From Deinococcales bacterium (GTDB lineage Bacteria; Deinococcota; Deinococci; Deinococcales; JAAFIG01): 56,085 nucleotides of DNA. The first letter of the stretch is position 1. Every line of letters starts with the position of its first letter. The stretch is from NCBI GenBank assembly GCA_043778225.1, contig JAYWGM010000001.1, positions 1 to 56,085 of the forward strand, in the 5' to 3' direction. The notes under the pieces are model-generated. The model was given only the letters and a program-made list of their open reading frames with translations, was not told the origin of the DNA and did not search any database. This document shows, piece after piece, positions 327 through 22,545 of the stretch. The translations under genes and the position numbers were made by a program.

Positions 327-1664
327 ATGACAGCCACGACTCGAGAACCAATCAGCATTGAGCAATTTGTCCATCAGCCTTTTGCTGGTGCGGATGGGTT
401 GATTGCTGGTTCTGACATTTGTGTGCAGTGCGGTATCTGCTTGTCGGCTTGTCCGACCTACCAATTAACGGGCGAAGAAATTCAGAGTCCTCGAGGGCGC
501 GTGATGCTCTACCGTGCGGCGGCTGAGGGCTTGGTGCAAGATTATGAAGTGGTTCTTGAGGCGGCTTATGATTGCCTTGACTGCCGTGCTTGCCAAACGG
601 TCTGTCCTAGTGGCGTGAAACCCGGTGAGTTATCGGTAGAAACTCGGGTGGCATTGCAAAAAGGTAAGCCACCATCTTGGCAAATTGCGGCGATTCTCGA
701 GCCATTCAAGTACCCATGGGCTTGGGATGTGATGAATTTCGGGGTGCGAACGTATCAAGGGCTGGGACTGCAAAAGTGGGTGCGAAAAAGCAAGATTCTC
801 GAGAAATTTGGAAACTTTGGCAAGAAACTAGCCGAACTCGAGAATATTCTGCCTGCCAAAGTTGCACCATCTATTCGTACCAGACTTGCGCCAGTCACAC
901 CAGCCATTGGCGAGCAGCGCGGACGGGTCGCATTTTTCTTGGGTTGCTTGATGAATGCTTTTTTTAGTGAAGCCTCGAGTGCCACAGTCAAAGTTTTAAC
1001 AATTAACGGCTTTGAAGTCGTCACGCCACGCGAAACCACCTGTTGTGGAGCGCCGCACATTGAAGAAGGCGACCGAACTGGCTTTGACCAAGTGGTTAAA
1101 CGCAACCTAGATATGTACGATTTACTCGAGGTGGATGCAATTATCACCGATTGTGCTGGTTGCGGCGCAGAACTCAAAAAATACGCCAAGATGTTCAAAG
1201 AAGACCCAGAATACGCTGCCAAAGCCGAGCGCTTCTCGAGCAAAAGCTATGGGATTTCCGAATTTTTGCGTAAGCATGGATTGCGCGAACTGCCCCAAGC
1301 CGACGCGCCCGAGATGACCGTGACCTACCAAGATGCTTGCCACCTTTGCCACGGGCAGGGATGCAGCACCCAACCACGGGATTTATTAAAGCAAAATCCA
1401 CTGGTGGATTACCGTGAACTCGAGAAAGCCAGTGATTGCTGTGGCAGTGCTGGAATTTACAACATCACCCATCCGGACACGAGTTATAAAATTCTCGAGG
1501 GAAAAATGGAGCGGGTGCGTGAAAGTGGGGCGCAAGTGCTGAGTGTTGAGAATCCGGGTTGCTTATTGCAACTCGAGGCTGGGACACGTAAATACAATGT
1601 GGATGTAGAAGTTCTGCACACCAGTCAGATTTTACTGGCGGCTTACGAGAAAAGCCCAAGATAA
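327..1664 (+). CDS. (Fe-S)-binding oxidoreductase subunit, GlcF/glycolate oxidase-like
   Basis: Two CxxCxxCxxxCP motifs plus two CCG domains (CCGA, CCGSAG). Start placed at ATG 327, 6 nt after TACAAT. Confidence 0.85.
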   Translation: MTATTREPISIEQFVHQPFAGADGLIAGSDICVQCGICLSACPTYQLTGEEIQSPRGRVMLYRAAAEGLVQDYEVVLEAAYDCLDCRACQTVCPSGVKPGELSVETRVALQKGKPPSWQIAAILEPFKYPWAWDVMNFGVRTYQGLGLQKWVRKSKILEKFGNFGKKLAELENILPAKVAPSIRTRLAPVTPAIGEQRGRVAFFLGCLMNAFFSEASSATVKVLTINGFEVVTPRETTCCGAPHIEEGDRTGFDQVVKRNLDMYDLLEVDAIITDCAGCGAELKKYAKMFKEDPEYAAKAERFSSKSYGISEFLRKHGLRELPQADAPEMTVTYQDACHLCHGQGCSTQPRDLLKQNPLVDYRELEKASDCCGSAGIYNITHPDTSYKILEGKMERVRESGAQVLSVENPGCLLQLEAGTRKYNVDVEVLHTSQILLAAYEKSPR

Positions 1665-1668
1665 TGGG

Positions 1669-2166
1669 CTATTTGCTCAGAACATTTTTAAGTGATTCTT
1701 CTTGTGCGCTTGTGTGCAAGCCGTAGCCACGCCAAAGAATATCGCCTTGTTGATTGACCAGCAGCAAGATGGTTTGAGCTTTGCTTTCGCCAATTGCTTG
1801 CAAGAATTTGTCTTGATGTACATATAAACGAATCACCACTTCCGGTAAAACCACATTGGGTACGCCAGAACGCAAACCTGTATCCACCACGGCTCGAGGT
1901 GAAGAATAGATTTGTGGCAATACAGGCATTTCATAGAATTGAAATTCTGGAAACGCTTGGCGTAAACGCACTGCGGCTGGTCGCCATGAAATCGCTTGGA
2001 TACGTTCTGGTTCATTAAAAGAAATAGCGAGTACGTTTAATTTGCCAGCAAAATCTCGAGGGAAATTGAATTGTTTTCCCTCGAGATTTGAACCTCCAAT
2101 ACTTGGGAAATTTCCAGTTTGCAAAAAGGAAAAACCCAGCATCAGCAAAACAGAAATTAAGTTCAT
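1669..2166 (-). CDS. Hypothetical exported protein, thioredoxin-like/ATP10-like
   Basis: Hydrophobic N-terminus; 'GSNLEGKQFNFP..F.GK' and 'LLVNQQGDILWRGYG' redoxin-like pattern without CxxC. Confidence 0.55.
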   Translation of the reverse strand: MNLISVLLMLGFSFLQTGNFPSIGGSNLEGKQFNFPRDFAGKLNVLAISFNEPERIQAISWRPAAVRLRQAFPEFQFYEMPVLPQIYSSPRAVVDTGLRSGVPNVVLPEVVIRLYVHQDKFLQAIGESKAQTILLLVNQQGDILWRGYGLHTSAQEESLKNVLSK

Positions 2167-15504: not shown

Positions 15505-15933
15505 TCAACCCTCAATACTCGGATAAAACCATTCGCTCTCCCCCGAAAAACACCAACACAAAGCAATTCTAGCCCCTTGCCCAAAAACAATAGCATTTTG
15601 ATTGAAATCTTGTGCCAGACTGATGATTTGCTCGAGTGGCACATCCCAAACAATAAAGCCAGCTTCTGACCACGATAGCTCGAGATTCTGCCCGTAACTG
15701 TCGGCAAATGCCCAGCCAAAGGACAGCAAAACCGCTTTCAGGTTGGCGTTGCGGGCTAAATTTTCTTCGTCAGAAAGCGGCGTGCTGCGTGGATTCTGTG
15801 CCGAAATCAAAGCAAATGTCCGCCCTTCAAACAACTCCAGACCTGTCTCGAGGCTCGAGAAACGAAAACCCAAACCTTGGGCATGGTAGCTCGTGGCGAG
15901 ATATGCCGCACGAAAAATTTGATCTGGGTGCAT
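15505..15933 (-). CDS. DUF3293-like protein
   Basis: 'AYLATSY', 'ISAQNPRS...EN..RN', 'W.E', 'FNQNAI' pattern. Confidence 0.75.
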   Translation of the reverse strand: MHPDQIFRAAYLATSYHAQGLGFRFSSLETGLELFEGRTFALISAQNPRSTPLSDEENLARNANLKAVLLSFGWAFADSYGQNLELSWSEAGFIVWDVPLEQIISLAQDFNQNAIVFGQGARIALCWCFSGESEWFYPSIEG

Positions 15934-17366
15934 TAAAGCCTCTGAACTGGCTGCAAAAAAGCCGCACTGGTGTGTCGCTCGAGGGCAGCACTGAGGGCAA
16001 TCAGCCGTCCATCCTCGAGAATTGGTGCGATCAACTGTACCCCGATTGGTAAGCCGCCTGAGGTACTAAAAGTGCCATTTTGTTCGTAGCCAAATGGAAT
16101 GCTGATTGCGGGTAAACCAGCCAGATTGACGGCTACGGTATCCACATCGGTCAGGTACATCTCTAAAGGGTCGGCTTTTGCGCCCAACTCAAAGGCGACA
16201 CTTGGCGCAGTCGGCATTAAAAGCGCATCCACGCCACTAAAAACCTGAGCAAAATCGGCAGCAATCATGGCTCTGGCACGAAGCGCTTTACTGTAAAACG
16301 CATCGTAGTAACCACTCGAGAGGGCATATGTTCCCATCAAAATACGGCGTTTGACCTCTGCCCCAAAACCAGCCCCACGAGATTTTGCCATGACCTCGAG
16401 TAAATCCGAACCTACGGCACGTTTTGAATAAACCATGCCATCGTAACGCGCCAAATTGCTGCTGGCTTCGGGGCAAGCAATTAAATAATAGGCGGCTAGC
16501 GCATTCTCGAGACTGGGTAAACTGACCTCGACCACACTTGCCCCTAATGCCTCAAGGGCTTTGCGGGTCTCCTCGATGGCACTTTGCACCGCTTGGCTGT
16601 TGCCACTGCCAAGACTTTCTTTAACCAAGCCAATTTTCCAACCGCGAATATCTTGGTTTAAGGCACTCGAGAAATGGCTTGGCGCATCCAAAGAAGTTGC
16701 ATCCATTGGGTCATGCCCCGAGATGACCTCGAGAAGCGCGGCTAAATCCTCGGTGCTGCGAGCAAACGGACCCACTTGGTCAAGGCTACTGGCATAGGCA
16801 ATCACGCCATACCTCGAGACCCGCCCGTAGGTTGGTTTTAGCCCAAGTACGCCGCAAAACGCGGCTGGTAAGCGAATACTGCCTCCAGTGTCTGTTCCCA
16901 ACGCCCCAGCCACAATGCCCTGCGCCACCGCCGCCGCACTGCCAGAACTGCTACCACCGGGAACACGGCTCGGGTCTCGAGGATTTTTGGTTGCGCCGTA
17001 AGCACTGTTTTCGCCGCTCGAACCCATACCGAATTCATCCATGTTGGCTTTACCAATCACGATTGCACCAGCATTTAATAAACGCTGCAAGGCGGTACTG
17101 GTATACGGCGAGACAAAATTTTCCAAAATACTCGAGCCAGCCGTTGCGCCTAAGCCACGCAGCACGATGTTGTCCTTAATTGCCAGTGGAAACCCCGCCA
17201 AGGGCAAGTGTTCGCCAGCTGATACTCGAGCGTCCACCGTGGCTGCCTGCTCGAGCGCCAAAGGATTAAGCGAAATAAAGGCATTTAACTGGTCTGTTTT
17301 TGCGGCTTCAAAACTGACCGCCACCGTATCCACAGCTTTTTTACTTTTAGAAAACCCCGAAGTCAT
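15933..17366 (-). CDS. gatA: Asp/Glu-tRNA amidotransferase subunit A
   Basis: Amidase signature 'GGSSSGSAAAV', 'DTGGSIR', 'EASSNLARYDG', 'KRRILMGTYALSSGYYDA'. Confidence 0.95.
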   Translation of the reverse strand: MTSGFSKSKKAVDTVAVSFEAAKTDQLNAFISLNPLALEQAATVDARVSAGEHLPLAGFPLAIKDNIVLRGLGATAGSSILENFVSPYTSTALQRLLNAGAIVIGKANMDEFGMGSSGENSAYGATKNPRDPSRVPGGSSSGSAAAVAQGIVAGALGTDTGGSIRLPAAFCGVLGLKPTYGRVSRYGVIAYASSLDQVGPFARSTEDLAALLEVISGHDPMDATSLDAPSHFSSALNQDIRGWKIGLVKESLGSGNSQAVQSAIEETRKALEALGASVVEVSLPSLENALAAYYLIACPEASSNLARYDGMVYSKRAVGSDLLEVMAKSRGAGFGAEVKRRILMGTYALSSGYYDAFYSKALRARAMIAADFAQVFSGVDALLMPTAPSVAFELGAKADPLEMYLTDVDTVAVNLAGLPAISIPFGYEQNGTFSTSGGLPIGVQLIAPILEDGRLIALSAALERHTSAAFLQPVQRL

Positions 17367-17435: not shown

Positions 17436-18068
17436 ATGGTCACTGTTTATTATGATTACCTTTGCCCTTATGCTTGGCGTGGGCTAGAGCTCTTGGCAGC
17501 ACTCGAGATTCCGTTTCTTGCACGGCATTACAGTCTTGTACAGGGCAACCACCCTGACAACGCCAACTTGCCACGCCATGCCCCAGTGTGGAAACTGGCT
17601 GAGCAAACGATTGGCGATACTGCCAACGACAATCTGCCAGCTTACTTGAATGTGGATGGTAGCCTCGAAGCCTTTTATGCTTCCCATGCCGCGATGCAGC
17701 AAGGCGCAGCCATTCATTTACAATTTGCACTGGCGTTGTTTCGGGCGCATCATCAAGACAAAAAAGCACTGAACAGCCAAACAATTTTGGAAGCGACTCG
17801 AGCCGCAAAACTCGACTTAGGCGCTTTTGCTGTAGCTCGAGCCGACATCAAAGCCCGAAATACAGAACTGGCGCTTGACCTCGAGGAAGCTGGGAAACTT
17901 GGGGTTTTTGGTACACCGACAATTCAACTCGAGAGCGGCGATATTGCTTACTTTCGCTTTGACAAGTTGCCAGAAACCCAAAAAGGCAAACTCGAGGCGT
18001 GGCAGATTTTTACCAACACACTTTTGAACCAAGCCCGAATCGGCACAATCAAACGGGCTAAGCCATAA
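17436..18068 (+). CDS. DsbA/FrnE-like thioredoxin-fold protein
   Basis: 'YYDYLCPYAW' and 'GVFGTPT'. Confidence 0.8.
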   Translation: MVTVYYDYLCPYAWRGLELLAALEIPFLARHYSLVQGNHPDNANLPRHAPVWKLAEQTIGDTANDNLPAYLNVDGSLEAFYASHAAMQQGAAIHLQFALALFRAHHQDKKALNSQTILEATRAAKLDLGAFAVARADIKARNTELALDLEEAGKLGVFGTPTIQLESGDIAYFRFDKLPETQKGKLEAWQIFTNTLLNQARIGTIKRAKP

Positions 18069-18136
18069 TAGCCACCTACACTTGGGTCACTGGACAACCA
18101 TTCTTGGACACTCGAGACTTCTGTTAAACTCTGCCT

Positions 18137-18451
18137 GTGTTTGAACCTTTAGATTTTGCTACCAGCCAAATACTTGACTGGGAACTCGAGATGATTCAAA
18201 ATGCACTTGATAGGCAAGAAATCGAAATTACTCGCCATGCTGCCAATGCTGCCTAAGATGATGGTTTAACCTTATTTCAATTGCTTGAGGCTGTGCTGGT
18301 TGGTGTTCCAGTAAGTAAGGATTTACCTGATAACGACCTTGAACGGATTGCTGGAATAAACTTTGAGCATCAAACATCGGATTCGCGTTGGTACAGAATA
18401 AAAGTTGCTTGGATTGACCAGTATTTGATTATTACAGCCCACACCATCTAA
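18137..18451 (+). pseudogene. DUF4258/RelE-like toxin with internal stop
   Basis: 105-codon frame (..EITRHAANAA*DDGLT..IITAHTI) interrupted by TAA at 18254-18256; TAAACT 6 nt before the GTG. Confidence 0.65.
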
Positions 18452-18458
18452 GGACACC

Positions 18459-18680
18459 ATGAACTTAACCATCAACGAAAACCGAATTGAATACAGTTAC
18501 ACCAATAAGACTGGTGCAGTTGTACGAATTCGCAATGTTCCTGCAAAAACCCGAGTAGACCAATTTGGACATGAACACCAGACCTTTAGTATTGCCGTGG
18601 CAATGCGACTCGAGGAGCTTAGAAAACAAGCCTTTGCCGTGGACGACTCGAGCAGCGCCATGCATGACCTCGAGTTTTGA
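18459..18680 (+). CDS. YgiT/MqsA-N-like putative antitoxin (no Zn cysteines)
   Basis: 'VRIRNVPA' motif; AGGA RBS; directly follows the DUF4258-like gene. Confidence 0.55.
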   Translation: MNLTINENRIEYSYTNKTGAVVRIRNVPAKTRVDQFGHEHQTFSIAVAMRLEELRKQAFAVDDSSSAMHDLEF

Positions 18681-18706
18681 AAAGCAGAACCACCAATTCT
18701 AAAATG

Positions 18707-18715
18707 TGCTATACT
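18707..18715 (+). promoter_or_regulatory. Extended -10 promoter
   Basis: TGCTATACT with no sizeable ORF downstream before a terminator. Confidence 0.6.
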
Positions 18716-18721
18716 ATCGTC

Positions 18722-18864
18722 GCTAGGATATGTCCCCGAGACAGTGCGAACTGAGTCGTTCTAGTGTCCGCCTCCGTTATAAAAAGCGGTTAGGTTTCTA
18801 GCCAGGACTGGAATATCAAAGAGACTAGGGTTAGTTCCAAAAAAGCCAGCAAATGCTGGCTTTT
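18722..18864 (+). ncRNA. Putative ~140-nt structured sRNA convergent with the htrC-like gene (SroH-like position)
   Basis: Bounded by the extended -10 and a terminator. Helices GCTAGGA/TTCTAGC (18722-28/18796-802), CAG-TGCGAA-CTG and CCGC/GCGG. Confidence 0.55.
18841..18864. terminator. Bidirectional terminator
   Basis: AAAAGCCAGC-AAAT-GCTGGCTTTT, abutting the stop codon of the minus-strand gene. Confidence 0.8.
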
Positions 18865-19393
18865 ATCTTTTTGGTTTAATCGGTTTGTTGTGCTGCACGT
18901 TAAAAAGTATTGTGGAAAACCGAACTTTATTAGGTTTTGGGCGACTCGAGATTCGGTCTTCGTCTCTTGGGAAAGCACTTGAGACAACAAGATGCAAGCG
19001 TTTATCATTAGTGGCGCGGCGGACTTCAAAAAAGATGTTGTATTCAAATTGCTGATTGTTTTGGTCAATTATTTCGATAGTCAAAAAATTTTGATGTTCG
19101 GTATGGGAAATATGACGCGACATCAGGTTCTTTATAATATCTGGAAGGTGTTTAGACAGTTCCCAACGACGAAAATTAAATGTCCGCACATCAGTTTGGC
19201 TTGGATAAATCAAGACCGAATCGTCTTCTGGCTTAATATCCTCTGTGAAACAATGATGGCTAAATTTAATCCAAGTGCGATACTGCCGTTCAGGACTGCC
19301 ATTTTCAGCAACTTGAATGAACCTATGGTCAAATCCATCCAAGTGCGATAAATCAAAAGACTGACTTTCAACTACAAACGACTTCCATTTCAC
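18863..19393 (-). CDS. htrC: HtrC/YjaZ-like protein ('heat shock protein C / stationary phase growth adaptation' family)
   Basis: KW..F...DLSHLD, W..FSHHCFT, R.F...RW.LS, L.L.VSSAFP, K.RFSTI..N...NK match E. coli HtrC as I recall it. AT-rich; GTG 19393 with AGGA upstream. Confidence 0.72.
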   Translation of the reverse strand: MKWKSFVVESQSFDLSHLDGFDHRFIQVAENGSPERQYRTWIKFSHHCFTEDIKPEDDSVLIYPSQTDVRTFNFRRWELSKHLPDIIKNLMSRHISHTEHQNFLTIEIIDQNNQQFEYNIFFEVRRATNDKRLHLVVSSAFPRDEDRISSRPKPNKVRFSTILFNVQHNKPIKPKR

Positions 19394-19400
19394 AAAATTC

Positions 19401-22400
19401 CTATGCCAACCACGCTTGGACACTCGAGACGGCTAACTCTGACCCGCCTACCTTCTCGAGCGCACTGACTAGCCACTCCGCAGCTTCTAAAGTCGTATAA
19501 AGCGCTGCTCCATGCTCCAAAGCACGGCGCGATAGTCTCGAGGCGGTCAGGTCAATCAGAATATCTGGTATCGCCGTGCTGTCATTACTCGAGGTGAGGT
19601 GCTGGACACTGTAACCAAGCGCGGTAAACCTTTGCTCGAGATTCGGGTTTTGCTGCCCGACAAATAAGACACTTCCCGTGAGGGGCAGTTTGACGTTCGC
19701 GCCAAGCTGAGCGCGGTAATACGCAAGGAATGGGTCTGCGTCTATGCCCATGCTTTCGCCAGTGCTTTTCATTTCAGGACCTAGAACTGGAATCACATCC
19801 TTAAATTTCAGGAATGGTAAATGAACTTCTTTGACGCTGTAATGGCTTGGTACAACACTTTGCGTAAAGCCAATTGTTTCGAGGCTTTGCCCAACAGCAA
19901 TTCGAGCAGCGTATTTTGCCAAGGGATGCCCAATCGCTTTAGACACAAATGGCACAGTGCGACTGGCTCGAGGGTTGGCTTCTAGGATATAGAGTAAATT
20001 GTCATGCACCGCGTATTGCACATTCATTAAGCCAAGTACCCCAAGCTCGAGCGCCAGACGTTTGGTGCTGACATGGACTTCCTCGAGCAGCGCTTGGCTT
20101 AAATGCACCGGCGGTAAAATACAAGCACTATCGCCGCTATGAATCCCAGCCGCTTCAATGTGTTCCATCACGCCGGCAATCACAGCAACTTTGCCATCAC
20201 ATAAACAGTCAACATCGAGTTCAAGAGCATTCTCGAGAAAGGTATCGAGCAAAATACTCGGGTTGCCCTCGACCGCCGCATAGACTTCTCGTAGGTAGGT
20301 CTCGAGTTCGGTTTGGCTCTGTACGGTTCGCATCGCCCGACCACCCAACACATAACTTGGGCGTGCCATCAGTGGAAAACCCAAGTCTTTTGCCAGTTTA
20401 AGGGCTTGTCCGGGGGTATTCGCCACTGCGCCTTTGGGCTGACGAATGCCGAGTCGGTCGCAGAGCAAATTAAACTCGAGTCTGTCTTCGGCAGTATGAA
20501 TCGCACTTGGCGATGTCCCGATTATTGGAGCGCCAGCCGCCTCGAGGACTTTGGCAAGTTTAAGCGGGGTTTGTCCACCAAGTTGCACAATCACGCCAAT
20601 CGGCTTTTCGTGTTCGACAATGTTCATCACGTCTTCAAAAGTTAAAGGCTCGAAATACAAACGGTCAGCGGTGTCGTAATCGGTACTGACGGTCTCGGGG
20701 TTGGAGTTGACCATGATGGTTTCATAGCCCAACTCGCGCAGCGCCCAGACGGCATGAACCGTCGCGTAATCAAATTCGACACCTTGTCCAATGCGGTTAG
20801 GTCCAGAACCGAGAATCATGATTTTTTGTTTGTCGGTGGCACGAACCTCATCTTCCCATTCGTAGCTCGAGTAATGGTACGGCGTGTGGGCTTCAAATTC
20901 AGCAGCACAGGTATCCACGGTTTTATAGACAGGCAGGCATTTAGCAGCTTTACGCAGCGCTCGAATCTCGAGTTCGGTTTTGCCACGCAATTCACCAATT
21001 CGCGCATCGGAAATTCCAAGGCGTTTAATTTCACGCCATGTTTCGTACTTCCAAGTCTCGAGCGAGCCAAGGGTCTGGATTTCTTTTTCGACTTCGATAA
21101 TTTCAGATAACTGAAACAAAAACCATGGGTCTATAGCTGTTTTCTTATGCAACTCGGCAACACTTACGCCGCGCCCCAGAAACTCGAGAATCGCCAGATA
21201 ACGCTTTGGATTTGCCTCGAGTAAAACCTCGAGTTGCGAGGCAGTCATGGTTTCAAAACCACCTCGAATATCGTTTTCCAAACTCCGCAGGGCTTTCATA
21301 AACGATTCTTTGAAGGTGCGCCCAATCGCCATGACCTCGCCGACCGAACGCATTTGGGTGTTTAAGCGCTCAGGTGTGCCGGGGAATTTTTCAAAAGCAA
21401 ATCTTGGAATTTTGGTGACCACATAATCGATGCTCGGCTCAAAACTGGCGGGTGTGACCTTAGTAATGTCGTTTGGCAATTCATCGAGGTAATACCCAGC
21501 CGCCAAAAGTGCTGCAATTTTGGCAATCGGAAAACCCGTGGCTTTAGAAGCCAGTGCGCTGCTCCTCGAGACTCGAGGGTTCATTTCAATCACCACCACC
21601 CGACCATCGGCGGGGTTAATCGCGTACTGAATGTTACTACCGCCCGTGTCCACCCCAATTTCGCGGATAACCGCTAAGCTGGCATCACGCAAGCGCTGAT
21701 ATTCTTTGTCAGACAAGGTTTGTTGTGGGGCAACCGTGATGCTGTCGCCGGTATGCACCCCCATCGGGTCAAAATTTTCGATACTGGTGATGATTAAAGC
21801 TGTGTCGTTGGTGTCCCGCATCACCTCGAGTTCAAATTCTTTCCAGCCCAAGACACTTTCTTCGATTAAAACCGTGCCGACCGGCGACAGGTGCAAACCA
21901 CTTGCCACGATTTCCTTAAACTCGGCTTCGTCGTAAGCAATCCCGCCACCTGTACCGCCCAAGGTAAAACTTGGGCGGATAATCGCTGGGTAGCCAACTT
22001 CTTTCACAAAGCCCAGTGCTTCCTCGAGCGTGGCAACCATCTGTCCTTTAGCGACTTCCAAACCAATTTTTTTCATGGCGATCGCAAATTTTTGGCGGTC
22101 TTCGCCTTTTTCGATCGCTTCTTTATTTGCACCAATTAACTCAACACCATATTTCTCGAGAATTCCCGCATCTGCCAGTGCCAAACTTAGGTTTAAGCCA
22201 GTCTGCCCACCAAGGGTTGGCAAAATTGCACTTGGGCGCTCTTTAATAATCACTTTCTCGAGAAAATCCAAAGTCAAAGGCTCGAGATAGGTGGCATCGG
22301 CAAGTTCTGGGTCGGTCATGATTGTGGCGGGGTTAGAATTGACCAGAATGACCCGAAATCCCGCATTTTTGAGGGCTTTGACGGCTTGTGTGCCACTGTA

Positions 22401-22481
22401 GTCAAACTCGGCAGCTTGACCGATTTGAATAGGACCTGAACCGATAATCAGAATGGTCTGTAAATCTGTGCGTTTTGGCAT
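19401..22481 (-). CDS. carB: Carbamoyl-phosphate synthase large subunit
   Basis: '[25 protein letters not shown]', two ATP-grasp domains, '[10 protein letters not shown]'. Confidence 0.97.
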
Positions 22482-22520
22482 GGAAACCTCGAGAGGAGAA
22501 TTGTGGCTTGCTTGAGTGGC

Positions 22521-22545
22521 AGGGCGAGGCAAGCCCCGCCCCTAC
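22521..22545. repeat. REP-like palindrome (GTAG family)
   Basis: Reverse complement reads GTAGGGGCGGGGCTTGCCTCGCCCT; copy at 4826. Confidence 0.72.

Follow-up and report, generated by a model that had tools for sequence, protein, structure and literature searches.

A YjaZ-family gene of a Deinococcales bacterium adjoins a convergent structured RNA, a pairing that recurs beside its homologues across phyla and on plasmids

Introduction

Type III toxin-antitoxin systems (ToxIN, CptIN, TenpIN) combine a small protein gene with a dedicated pseudoknot-forming RNA, with a terminator between the two, and are carried on plasmids or in islands; pseudo-ToxI copies are found on phages. In Deinococcus, the Ro (Rsr) gene lies beside a Y RNA gene. 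YjaZ (HtrC) and the small RNA (sRNA) SroH have been annotated in Escherichia coli K-12 for decades without a function, yjaZ at 4189786-4190325 on the + strand and sroH at 4190327-4190487 on the - strand; SroH is still called uncharacterised in passages of two papers (PMC5389530, PMC6172242), and no published function for either gene was found in the literature searched on both. By listings and abstracts, the literature on yjaZ and on the sroH sRNA nowhere treats the pair as a unit; as far as those sources go, the adjacency in E. coli is already annotated and the pair is not described as a functional module. Here we describe a homologue of yjaZ with a convergent structured RNA of its own in a 56,085-nucleotide stretch of DNA from a Deinococcales bacterium (contig JAYWGM010000001.1 of assembly GCA_043778225.1; this whole stretch is called the window), and we trace the linkage of the protein to a dedicated structured RNA over phyla, plasmids and viral contigs.

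The window locus and the E. coli locus (NF007263/PF27200 for the protein, RF00372 for the RNA) have the same layout, that is, a convergent RNA of ~140-160 nt that starts from a promoter of its own and ends in a terminator abutting the yjaZ stop codon, and both RNAs have a candidate pseudoknot formed from the internal loop of helix P1. The initial annotation of the window had described E. coli yjaZ with a convergent sroH at its 3' end, which is correct, and the same arrangement of promoter and shared terminator is found in the window; a true SroH-like RNA stands elsewhere in the genome, at a paralogue on contig C14, one of three YjaZ paralogues in the window's genus that have RNAs of this type. 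The two loci differ in that the proteins are 31% identical, the window RNA is matched neither by RF00372 nor by a covariance model of the SroH type (R2), and yjaZ lies behind carB in the window and behind rpoC in E. coli.

With type III systems the pair shares tight linkage to a dedicated RNA and a plasmid-borne or island location, and the order RNA-terminator-yjaZ on a Vibrio plasmid mirrors toxI-toxN; it differs in that the window locus is a single ~150-nt unit without tandem repeats, that it and most other loci are convergent (the co-directional order is seen on the one Vibrio plasmid only) and that the YjaZ fold has no ToxN/AbiQ match. As with Ro and Y RNA, a protein gene stands beside a structured-RNA gene, and Ro binds its RNA; however, the protein and RNA families are unrelated, and no Rfam Y RNA matches positions 17500-20000. 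From type I toxin-antitoxin pairs with a convergent 3' overlap the locus is set apart by YjaZ, a 176-residue protein modelled as soluble and beta-rich rather than a small hydrophobic peptide, and from RelE/ParE and other BECR-fold toxins by sub-significant structural scores, roughly twice the length, an added N-terminal sheet and the absence of an adjoining protein antitoxin at the window yjaZ.

The window locus

The protein gene, the gene in front of it and the parts of the RNA are as follows; R1 is the covariance model built for the window's RNA type.

18863-19393, - strand: yjaZ-family gene, 176 amino acids (aa), GTG start; AlphaFold2 model with a predicted local distance difference test (pLDDT) score of 91.8
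19401-22532, - strand: carB, with Pfam CPSase domains
18707-18715, + strand: extended -10 promoter box TGCTATACT, read in the sequence and kept in homologues
18719-18872, + strand: structured non-coding RNA of R1 type, ~150 nt; 159.4 bits with R1
18721-18729 with 18758-18766, + strand: helix P1; 8 of 9 pairs changed on both sides
18734-18737, + strand: internal loop CCCC, enclosed by P1
18742-18745 with 18750-18753, + strand: hairpin P2 with a GCGA loop; 4 of 4 pairs changed on both sides, 100% of cells paired
18770-18772 (GCC) with 18793-18795 (GGT), + strand: helix P3; 2 of 3 pairs compensatory
18773-18789, + strand: variable hairpin inserted in P3, present in some homologues and absent from others
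18796-18801 (TTCTAG), loop CCAGGA, 18808-18813 (CTGGAA), + strand: hairpin P4; 4 of 6 pairs compensatory in the wider set
After P4, to 18830 (GGG at 18828-18830), + strand: single strand TATCAAAGAG...GGG, recognised by its conservation
18841-18864, T-run to 18872, + strand: bidirectional intrinsic terminator, from a terminator scan; 9 of 10 stem pairs compensatory

The initial annotation had pointed to an AT-rich gene of 176 aa directly behind carB, and the gene answers this description: its GC content is 39% as compared with 50% for both the window and carB, and its GTG lies 7 nt after the carB stop codon. It is probably co-transcribed with carB and probably lacks a separate promoter at this locus. 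The full open reading frame (ORF), 18863-19423(-), contains the in-frame GTG at 19393 that yields 176 aa; homologues align from residue 11-12, and the Atlas entry begins at residue 11. The proposed homology to HtrC/YjaZ is likewise sound, in that residues 11-182 match positions 6-174 of the 179 in the NCBIfam profile NF007263 (YjaZ; E = 2.1e-17), BLASTP against E. coli K-12 YjaZ gives the 31% identity at E = 5e-21, and the expected motifs are present as FDLSHLDGF, KFSHHCFTE and VVSSAFPRD. The profile score of 63.7 bits does not reach the equivalog cut-off of 324 bits; judged by its sequence, the window protein is a member of the YjaZ family, not an equivalog of E. coli YjaZ. A protein with 99% identity has a precomputed PF27200 annotation, as have 10 other relatives; the Atlas clusters are 98-99% PF27200 'YjaZ', and an exhaustive phmmer search returned 640 cluster representatives at E ≤ 0.001.

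On the opposite strand, the promoter box stands at a constant distance from P1 in 11 of 11 aligned homologues (variants TGGTATAAT, TGCTAGACT, TGGTACAAT, CGCTATAGT and CGCTATAAT), and the predicted transcription start is at ~18721-18723. The segment 18722-18875 folds with -52 kcal/mol (z = -3.4 against shuffles), the loops of P2 in homologues are mostly GNRA, and P4 sits in a near-invariant core (GGTTTCTAGCCAGGACTGGAATA / GGUUUCUAGCCAGGACUGGAAUA) that is followed by the conserved AAGAG...GGG single strand and then by the terminator. The terminator hairpin has an A-run before it and a T-run after it and overlaps the yjaZ stop codon (18863-18865), as had been noticed at the outset. That this strand holds a multi-helix RNA of ~140 nt with no credible ORF, also part of the initial annotation, agrees with the z-score of the fold, with compensatory changes in relatives and with a search for ORFs of at least 26 aa wholly inside 18681-18862, which found none. 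A coding function was rejected, since the only ORFs are of ≤25 aa and indels in homologues shift the frame: gap runs of 1, 2, 4, 7, 8, 11, 14 and 16 occur among the 10 aligned RNAs, and no reading frame is kept. Also rejected was a 3' untranslated region of the small upstream gene orf73, since there are relatives without orf73 5' of the RNA, which moreover has a conserved promoter box to itself.

Conservation and covariation of the R1-type RNA

When 18681-18880 was searched as DNA against 61 relatives, full-length matches of 69-81% identity came from the same genus and family, together with short core matches of 81-94% identity. As shown by tblastn, the short core matches adjoin YjaZ paralogues that are just 31-34% identical to the window protein, and one such paralogue with its core is on contig C101 of the window's own genome. 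Eleven downstream regions were aligned for the promoter box and 10 trimmed RNAs for the structure; for the latter, RNAalifold predicts 35 pairs, 17 of them with compensatory changes. In the larger covariation alignment (33 sequences, 32 distinct rows), which carries the caveat that it was fitted to R1 itself, 93.8% of the cells are paired as compared with 74.8% in column shuffles, and none of 500 shuffles reaches the observed level. Among the 32 distinct sequences, 29 of the 35 pairs have changed on both sides, and when the 3' partners are slid by 1-3 columns pairing falls to 38-50%. Relatives keep the region with compensatory base-pair changes, which goes beyond chance, and on this comparative evidence the R1-type RNA is real.

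A pseudoknot between the CCCC loop and the GGG of the conserved single strand is a candidate only. In sequences of group g7, from another genus, CCC/GGG is by eye swapped for GCUGA(A)/U(U)CAGY; a per-sequence shuffle test of the R1-type pseudoknot gave a mean best helix of 3.83 as compared with 3.67 in shuffled sequences, which is not significant.

An E-value scan of 17500-20000 against Rfam found no family at E ≤ 1 beyond a weak match of AbsR28 on the terminator. RF00372, the gathering threshold of which is 80 bits, has no match at E ≤ 1 in the same interval, and R2 has none at the window RNA on the same strand. The R1-type RNA is absent from Rfam 15 and is a second RNA family beside SroH.

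Linkage of the RNA to yjaZ in Deinococcota

Starting from the RNA, R1 finds 27 matches in 14 of the family's 19 genomes, and 18 of the 24 matches at E < 1e-5 adjoin a convergent ORF that matches the YjaZ profile. The exceptions comprise an intact RNA with no adjacent yjaZ (L033), an RNA convergent with an orf73 homologue (L028), an RNA convergent with an HNH_3 gene that encodes a 94-aa endonuclease (L041, G012:C292:7215-7344), two RNAs in a toxin-antitoxin-rich island (L034, L037) and one 98 nt from a contig end (L039); RNAs without yjaZ are seen at 5-6 loci. A single contig has three R1-type RNAs (L025, L034, L041) inside 5 kb, of which one is convergent with a truncated yjaZ, one (L041) with the HNH_3 gene and one stands without a partner.

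Starting from the protein, there are 38 YjaZ loci in the phylum sample (30 R1-type, 3 SroH-type, 5 without RNA), namely 22 in the family's 19 genomes (17 R1-type, 3 SroH-type and 2 without RNA, one at a contig edge and one with a 57-aa yjaZ fragment) and 16 in other families from 301 phylum genomes (13 R1-type, 0 SroH-type and 3 without RNA). A convergent RNA, which the initial annotation expected homologues generally to have, is thus present at 33 of the 38 loci (20/22 in the family, 13/16 in other families). In those other families, one of the loci without RNA is at a contig edge (L070), one looks R1-like by eye and is unmatched by the model (L075), and one has no RNA at the expected place (L077). 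Eight of the 38 yjaZ copies are disrupted (4 by internal stop codons, 2 split, 2 truncated), and the RNA match is kept at each. RNAs that stand alone or are kept beside a broken yjaZ form an asymmetry typical of toxin-antitoxin pairs.

The window's genome has three YjaZ copies. In two relatives the orthologous module lies not behind carB but between hsdR (EcoEI_R_C) and hsdM of a type I restriction system.

SroH-type RNAs

The three paralogues without an R1 match (own-genome C14, G003:C104, G004:C65) are matched by the SroH model RF00372 at 55.2, 40.0 and 40.7 bits (E from 7e-11 to 9e-7; below the 80-bit gathering threshold), and their RNAs are convergent at the yjaZ stop codon. An alignment of these three, E. 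coli SroH and four copies from enterobacterial plasmids has 56 invariant columns, and RNAalifold predicts 29 pairs, 12 of which are compensatory; with an added pseudoknot, 98.8% of the cells are paired as compared with 86.7% in shuffles. The candidate pseudoknot CAGA/UCUG becomes CGGA/UCCG in two sequences, which are closely related. Rfam's SroH model annotates the terminator alone, and the predicted structure from this alignment is fuller; the R1- and SroH-type structures are the first for these RNAs with support from covariation.

The C14 protein shares 42% identity with E. coli YjaZ as compared with 30% with the window copy; both RNA types are therefore present in the window's genome, with a separate YjaZ subfamily for each. 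In outline the two types agree: P1 surrounds a hairpin capped by a tetraloop, there are more hairpins, both contain a GAAUA(C)C-A(A)G motif, and the terminator sits on the stop codon. Homology between them is not demonstrated by searching with the model of one type against the other: R2 has no match on R1-type RNAs, and R1 scores 11.9-17.9 bits on SroH-type loci, mostly on the terminator.

At C14 and on the Xanthomonas plasmids a gene of XRE/helix-turn-helix (HTH) type upstream of yjaZ was considered as the source of a protein antitoxin; for C14 the idea was dropped, as these paralogues have an SroH-type RNA, and on the Xanthomonas plasmids the gene stays a candidate. The HTH gene is missing at one of the three SroH-type loci and at another follows an apparent Gp49/HigB-type gene (by eye). 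HTH genes directly upstream of yjaZ and in the same orientation are seen at the C14 locus (L061) and on two Xanthomonas plasmids (L096, L097).

The E. coli islet, plasmids and viral contigs

The rpoC-yjaZ-sroH-thiH interval is found in 3727 of 5426 complete E. coli genomes. Among the listed genomes without it, query coverage is 44% and only rpoC and thiH are annotated, and therefore a ~0.92-kb piece with both yjaZ and sroH is missing; in E. coli the two genes are present or absent together, as an islet of ~0.92 kb.

With tblastn, YjaZ homologues were found on 212 plasmid records, some of them plasmids of just 2.3-5 kb (Xanthomonas 64, Pseudomonas 46, Vibrio 24, Escherichia 15, Serratia 15, Klebsiella 14 and others), with integrases, an annotated abortive-infection gene, ParA and insertion sequence (IS) elements as neighbours of yjaZ. 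SroH stands beside plasmid yjaZ in E. coli (113 and 99 bits) and, by BLAST, on Enterobacter and Serratia plasmids, and R1 gives weak matches of 21.1 and 20.6 bits at the expected place on Pantoea and Erwinia plasmids (E ~2e-4 in a 35.7-kb search). We compared the downstream regions of 19 proteobacterial loci (18 on plasmids and the E. coli chromosomal one), of which 17 form six sequence-conserved groups and two, from Vibrio (L086, L099), remain ungrouped; inspection by eye shows promoters, GNRA hairpins and terminators in the compared regions. On a Vibrio parahaemolyticus plasmid, an SroH-type RNA at 1260-1438(+) (60.3 bits) with its own terminator is followed directly downstream by a co-directional yjaZ at 1468-2019(+); with the RNA upstream and co-directional, the pairing is therefore independent of a convergent 3' overlap.

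Some ColE1-like plasmids of 2.3-5 kb (L083, pKP120-2Kb, 2308 bp; L084, L091, L098) hold little beyond RNAI, a YjaZ homologue and a convergent conserved structured region. Two of them have in addition an unannotated gene of 170-198 aa directly 5' of yjaZ, with no Pfam match.

Phage records gave no YjaZ protein match, and neither RNA was matched there by BLAST; in IMG/VR viral contigs the core pattern of R1 has no match. The core pattern of SroH is present in 10 IMG/VR contigs, and 7 of these contain a full SroH-type RNA (89-131 bits), 4 with an adjacent YjaZ ORF and 3 without any within 1.5 kb. The YjaZ-less viral RNAs (L102, L103, L109) score 107-117 bits; one lies in a 342-kb AT-rich contig, and two adjoin an apparent Ogr/Delta-type zinc-finger gene (by eye).

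The YjaZ protein

In a maximum-likelihood tree of 46 YjaZ sequences (the short rows L073, L076, L078 and L079 were dropped), 11 RNA-type labels need 10 changes, the minimum possible, as compared with a mean of 23 for shuffled labels, a descriptive figure because relatives share labels. The Deinococcota proteins with SroH-type RNAs cluster with the enterobacterial ones in the starred clade. Descriptively, as read from these sequences, RNA type follows the YjaZ protein clades.

Residues H27, H57, R80, R86, S90, Y128 and F132 are invariant in 45 aligned homologues. The AlphaFold2 model (predicted template modelling score 0.85) has a soluble beta-rich fold. Its suspected RelE/BECR nature finds an echo below significance and no established structural match: Foldseek against the Protein Data Bank (PDB) returned nothing at E ≤ 0.001 and no ToxN/AbiQ match, and a PDB sequence profile search returned no match, while nearly all of the top VIA-align rows are RelE/ParE/HigB/YoeB/BrnT or CdiA-CT toxins with scores below significance, and the weak structural neighbours in the Atlas include Gp49/RelE and DUF4258 clusters. 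An RNase-like toxin fold is, from the model, a lead and not a result.

Function of the pair

YjaZ and its RNA almost certainly work together. Comparison of the sequences establishes that the protein is a homologue, that the RNA is structured and conserved, that the two are linked across lineages and arrangements and that they are mobile; we infer physical binding, inhibition, nuclease activity and a role in defence or addiction. The account that we favour, tentatively and as not quite probable, is that of a mobile module whose RNA holds an RNase-like YjaZ effector in check by binding it. The RNA would be transcribed from its own extended -10 promoter toward yjaZ, ending at the shared bidirectional terminator, and would fold compactly, with P1 around P2, then P3, P4, the conserved single strand and possibly a pseudoknot. 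It would then bind YjaZ directly and keep it inactive; YjaZ itself would act as an RNase-like effector, small and basic, in which His/His/Arg/Arg/Ser/Tyr residues are conserved. The pair would then be akin to type III toxin-antitoxin or abortive-infection systems, and its carriage on plasmids would be accounted for.

Binding of YjaZ by the RNA is suggested because the constraint spans ~120 nt outside the terminator overlap, because RNA type tracks protein clade and because the linkage outlasts changes in gene order. An inhibitory role is favoured because RNAs stand alone or persist beside a broken yjaZ and an intact yjaZ without RNA is rare, because yjaZ sits on tiny plasmids and in defence islands, because there are several copies per genome and because the fold weakly resembles RelE/BECR toxins. 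Several points weigh against this account. TRF (minimum score 30) finds no tandem repeats in 18600-19450, and PADLOC has no match for three YjaZ copies; a passage of PMC5389530, citing another study, describes an E. coli sroH deletion mutant just as envelope-stress sensitive; SroH bound kbl mRNA in vitro in an electrophoretic mobility shift assay (EMSA), according to the part of PMC6172242 that deals with it; and the argument for inhibition of YjaZ draws on sequences and models. The mobile two-part unit of the initial annotation is upheld for linkage, co-inheritance, plasmids and islets, and its mechanism of RNase toxin and RNA antitoxin stays conditional, at a locus without tandem repeats.

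In the main rival the RNA would be a positive partner of YjaZ in a ribonucleoprotein like that of Ro and Y RNA, serving as scaffold, cofactor, guide or substrate, and would be needed for YjaZ activity or processed by YjaZ. The linkage, co-evolution and structure data fit this equally, and two statements in passages of PMC5389530 suit it, the viable sroH deletion, which fits better than with an antitoxin, and the report of processed SroH forms. We nevertheless hold it unlikely, as orphan RNAs and RNAs beside a broken yjaZ are easier to understand as antitoxins or decoys, and carriage on tiny plasmids suggests addiction or defence.

Another reading is regulation in cis, in which the RNA would act on yjaZ mRNA by antisense or terminator overlap, like the convergent Bacillus type I pairs, without binding the protein. 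Genes at most loci are convergent with ~40 nt of terminator in common, and this sharing is conserved, as such regulation would have it; on the Vibrio plasmid, however, the RNA lies upstream and co-directional without any 3' overlap, the covarying structure covers ~120 nt outside the overlap elsewhere, and YjaZ is a soluble protein of 176 aa, not a small membrane peptide, all of which makes this explanation improbable.

A shade less probable still is an ordinary trans-acting sRNA with mRNA targets of its own that merely travels with yjaZ. The binding of kbl mRNA in the EMSA (PMC6172242) and the description of SroH, in a passage of PMC5389530, as a primary transcript with its own start site are what such an sRNA would lead one to expect, but the linkage holds over phyla, plasmids and three arrangements with RNA type tracking protein clade, host targets could not stay conserved from Deinococcota to Enterobacteria, and dense structure leaves the RNA few long single strands. 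That the conserved stretch is a DNA element, such as a recombination or protein-binding site, with no RNA gene would suit the mobility of the module but is very improbable, given compensatory changes that keep RNA helices including G-U pairs on one strand, the conserved promoter box and terminator, and the E. coli SroH of the same layout beside yjaZ, a detected transcript in the account of PMC5389530, the type of which accompanies a paralogue in the window's genome.

Should the RNA restrain an RNase-like effector, the pair would represent a new family, of RNA antitoxins or of defence systems under RNA control. A wider proposal, somewhat unlikely when taken whole, is that YjaZ and its RNA form an unrecognised and widespread RNA-protein class of defence or addiction systems, in which a single-copy pseudoknotted RNA checks an RNase-like effector, with at least two co-evolving RNA types and probably more, which spreads between phyla on plasmids and islets and against which phages carry RNA-only decoys, the YjaZ-less viral copies being the parallel to pseudo-ToxI. 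If this were true, the E. coli orphan sRNA SroH and the y-gene yjaZ would gain a function.

Surrounding genes and sequence composition

The genes on the far side of the RNA are as follows.

18459-18680, + strand: orf73, 73 aa, just 5' of the RNA
17436-18068, + strand: gene for a DSBA-like thioredoxin-domain protein, ordinary housekeeping context
15933-17366, - strand: amidase gene, ordinary housekeeping context

The protein encoded by orf73 has no Pfam, NCBIfam or PADLOC match. Two homologues (51-53% identical) occur in one relative, each after an ORF of 104-108 aa without a Pfam match, and one homologue is convergent with an R1-type RNA where yjaZ would be (L028, of the L011/L028 loci); such a homologue and the ORF before it may be another small two-gene cassette.

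Among other 6-bp palindromes in the window, none exceeds its expectation more than 3-fold, and ACTAGT, ACGCGT, ACATGT and AAGCTT are absent. The palindrome CTCGAG occurs 373 times in the 56 kb (~1 per 150 bp) as compared with 13.7 expected from base composition, a 27-fold excess, for example at 18609, 18647, 18669, 18945, 19423 and 19455 and nowhere within the RNA; in the window, this excess resembles a genome-wide highly iterated palindrome.

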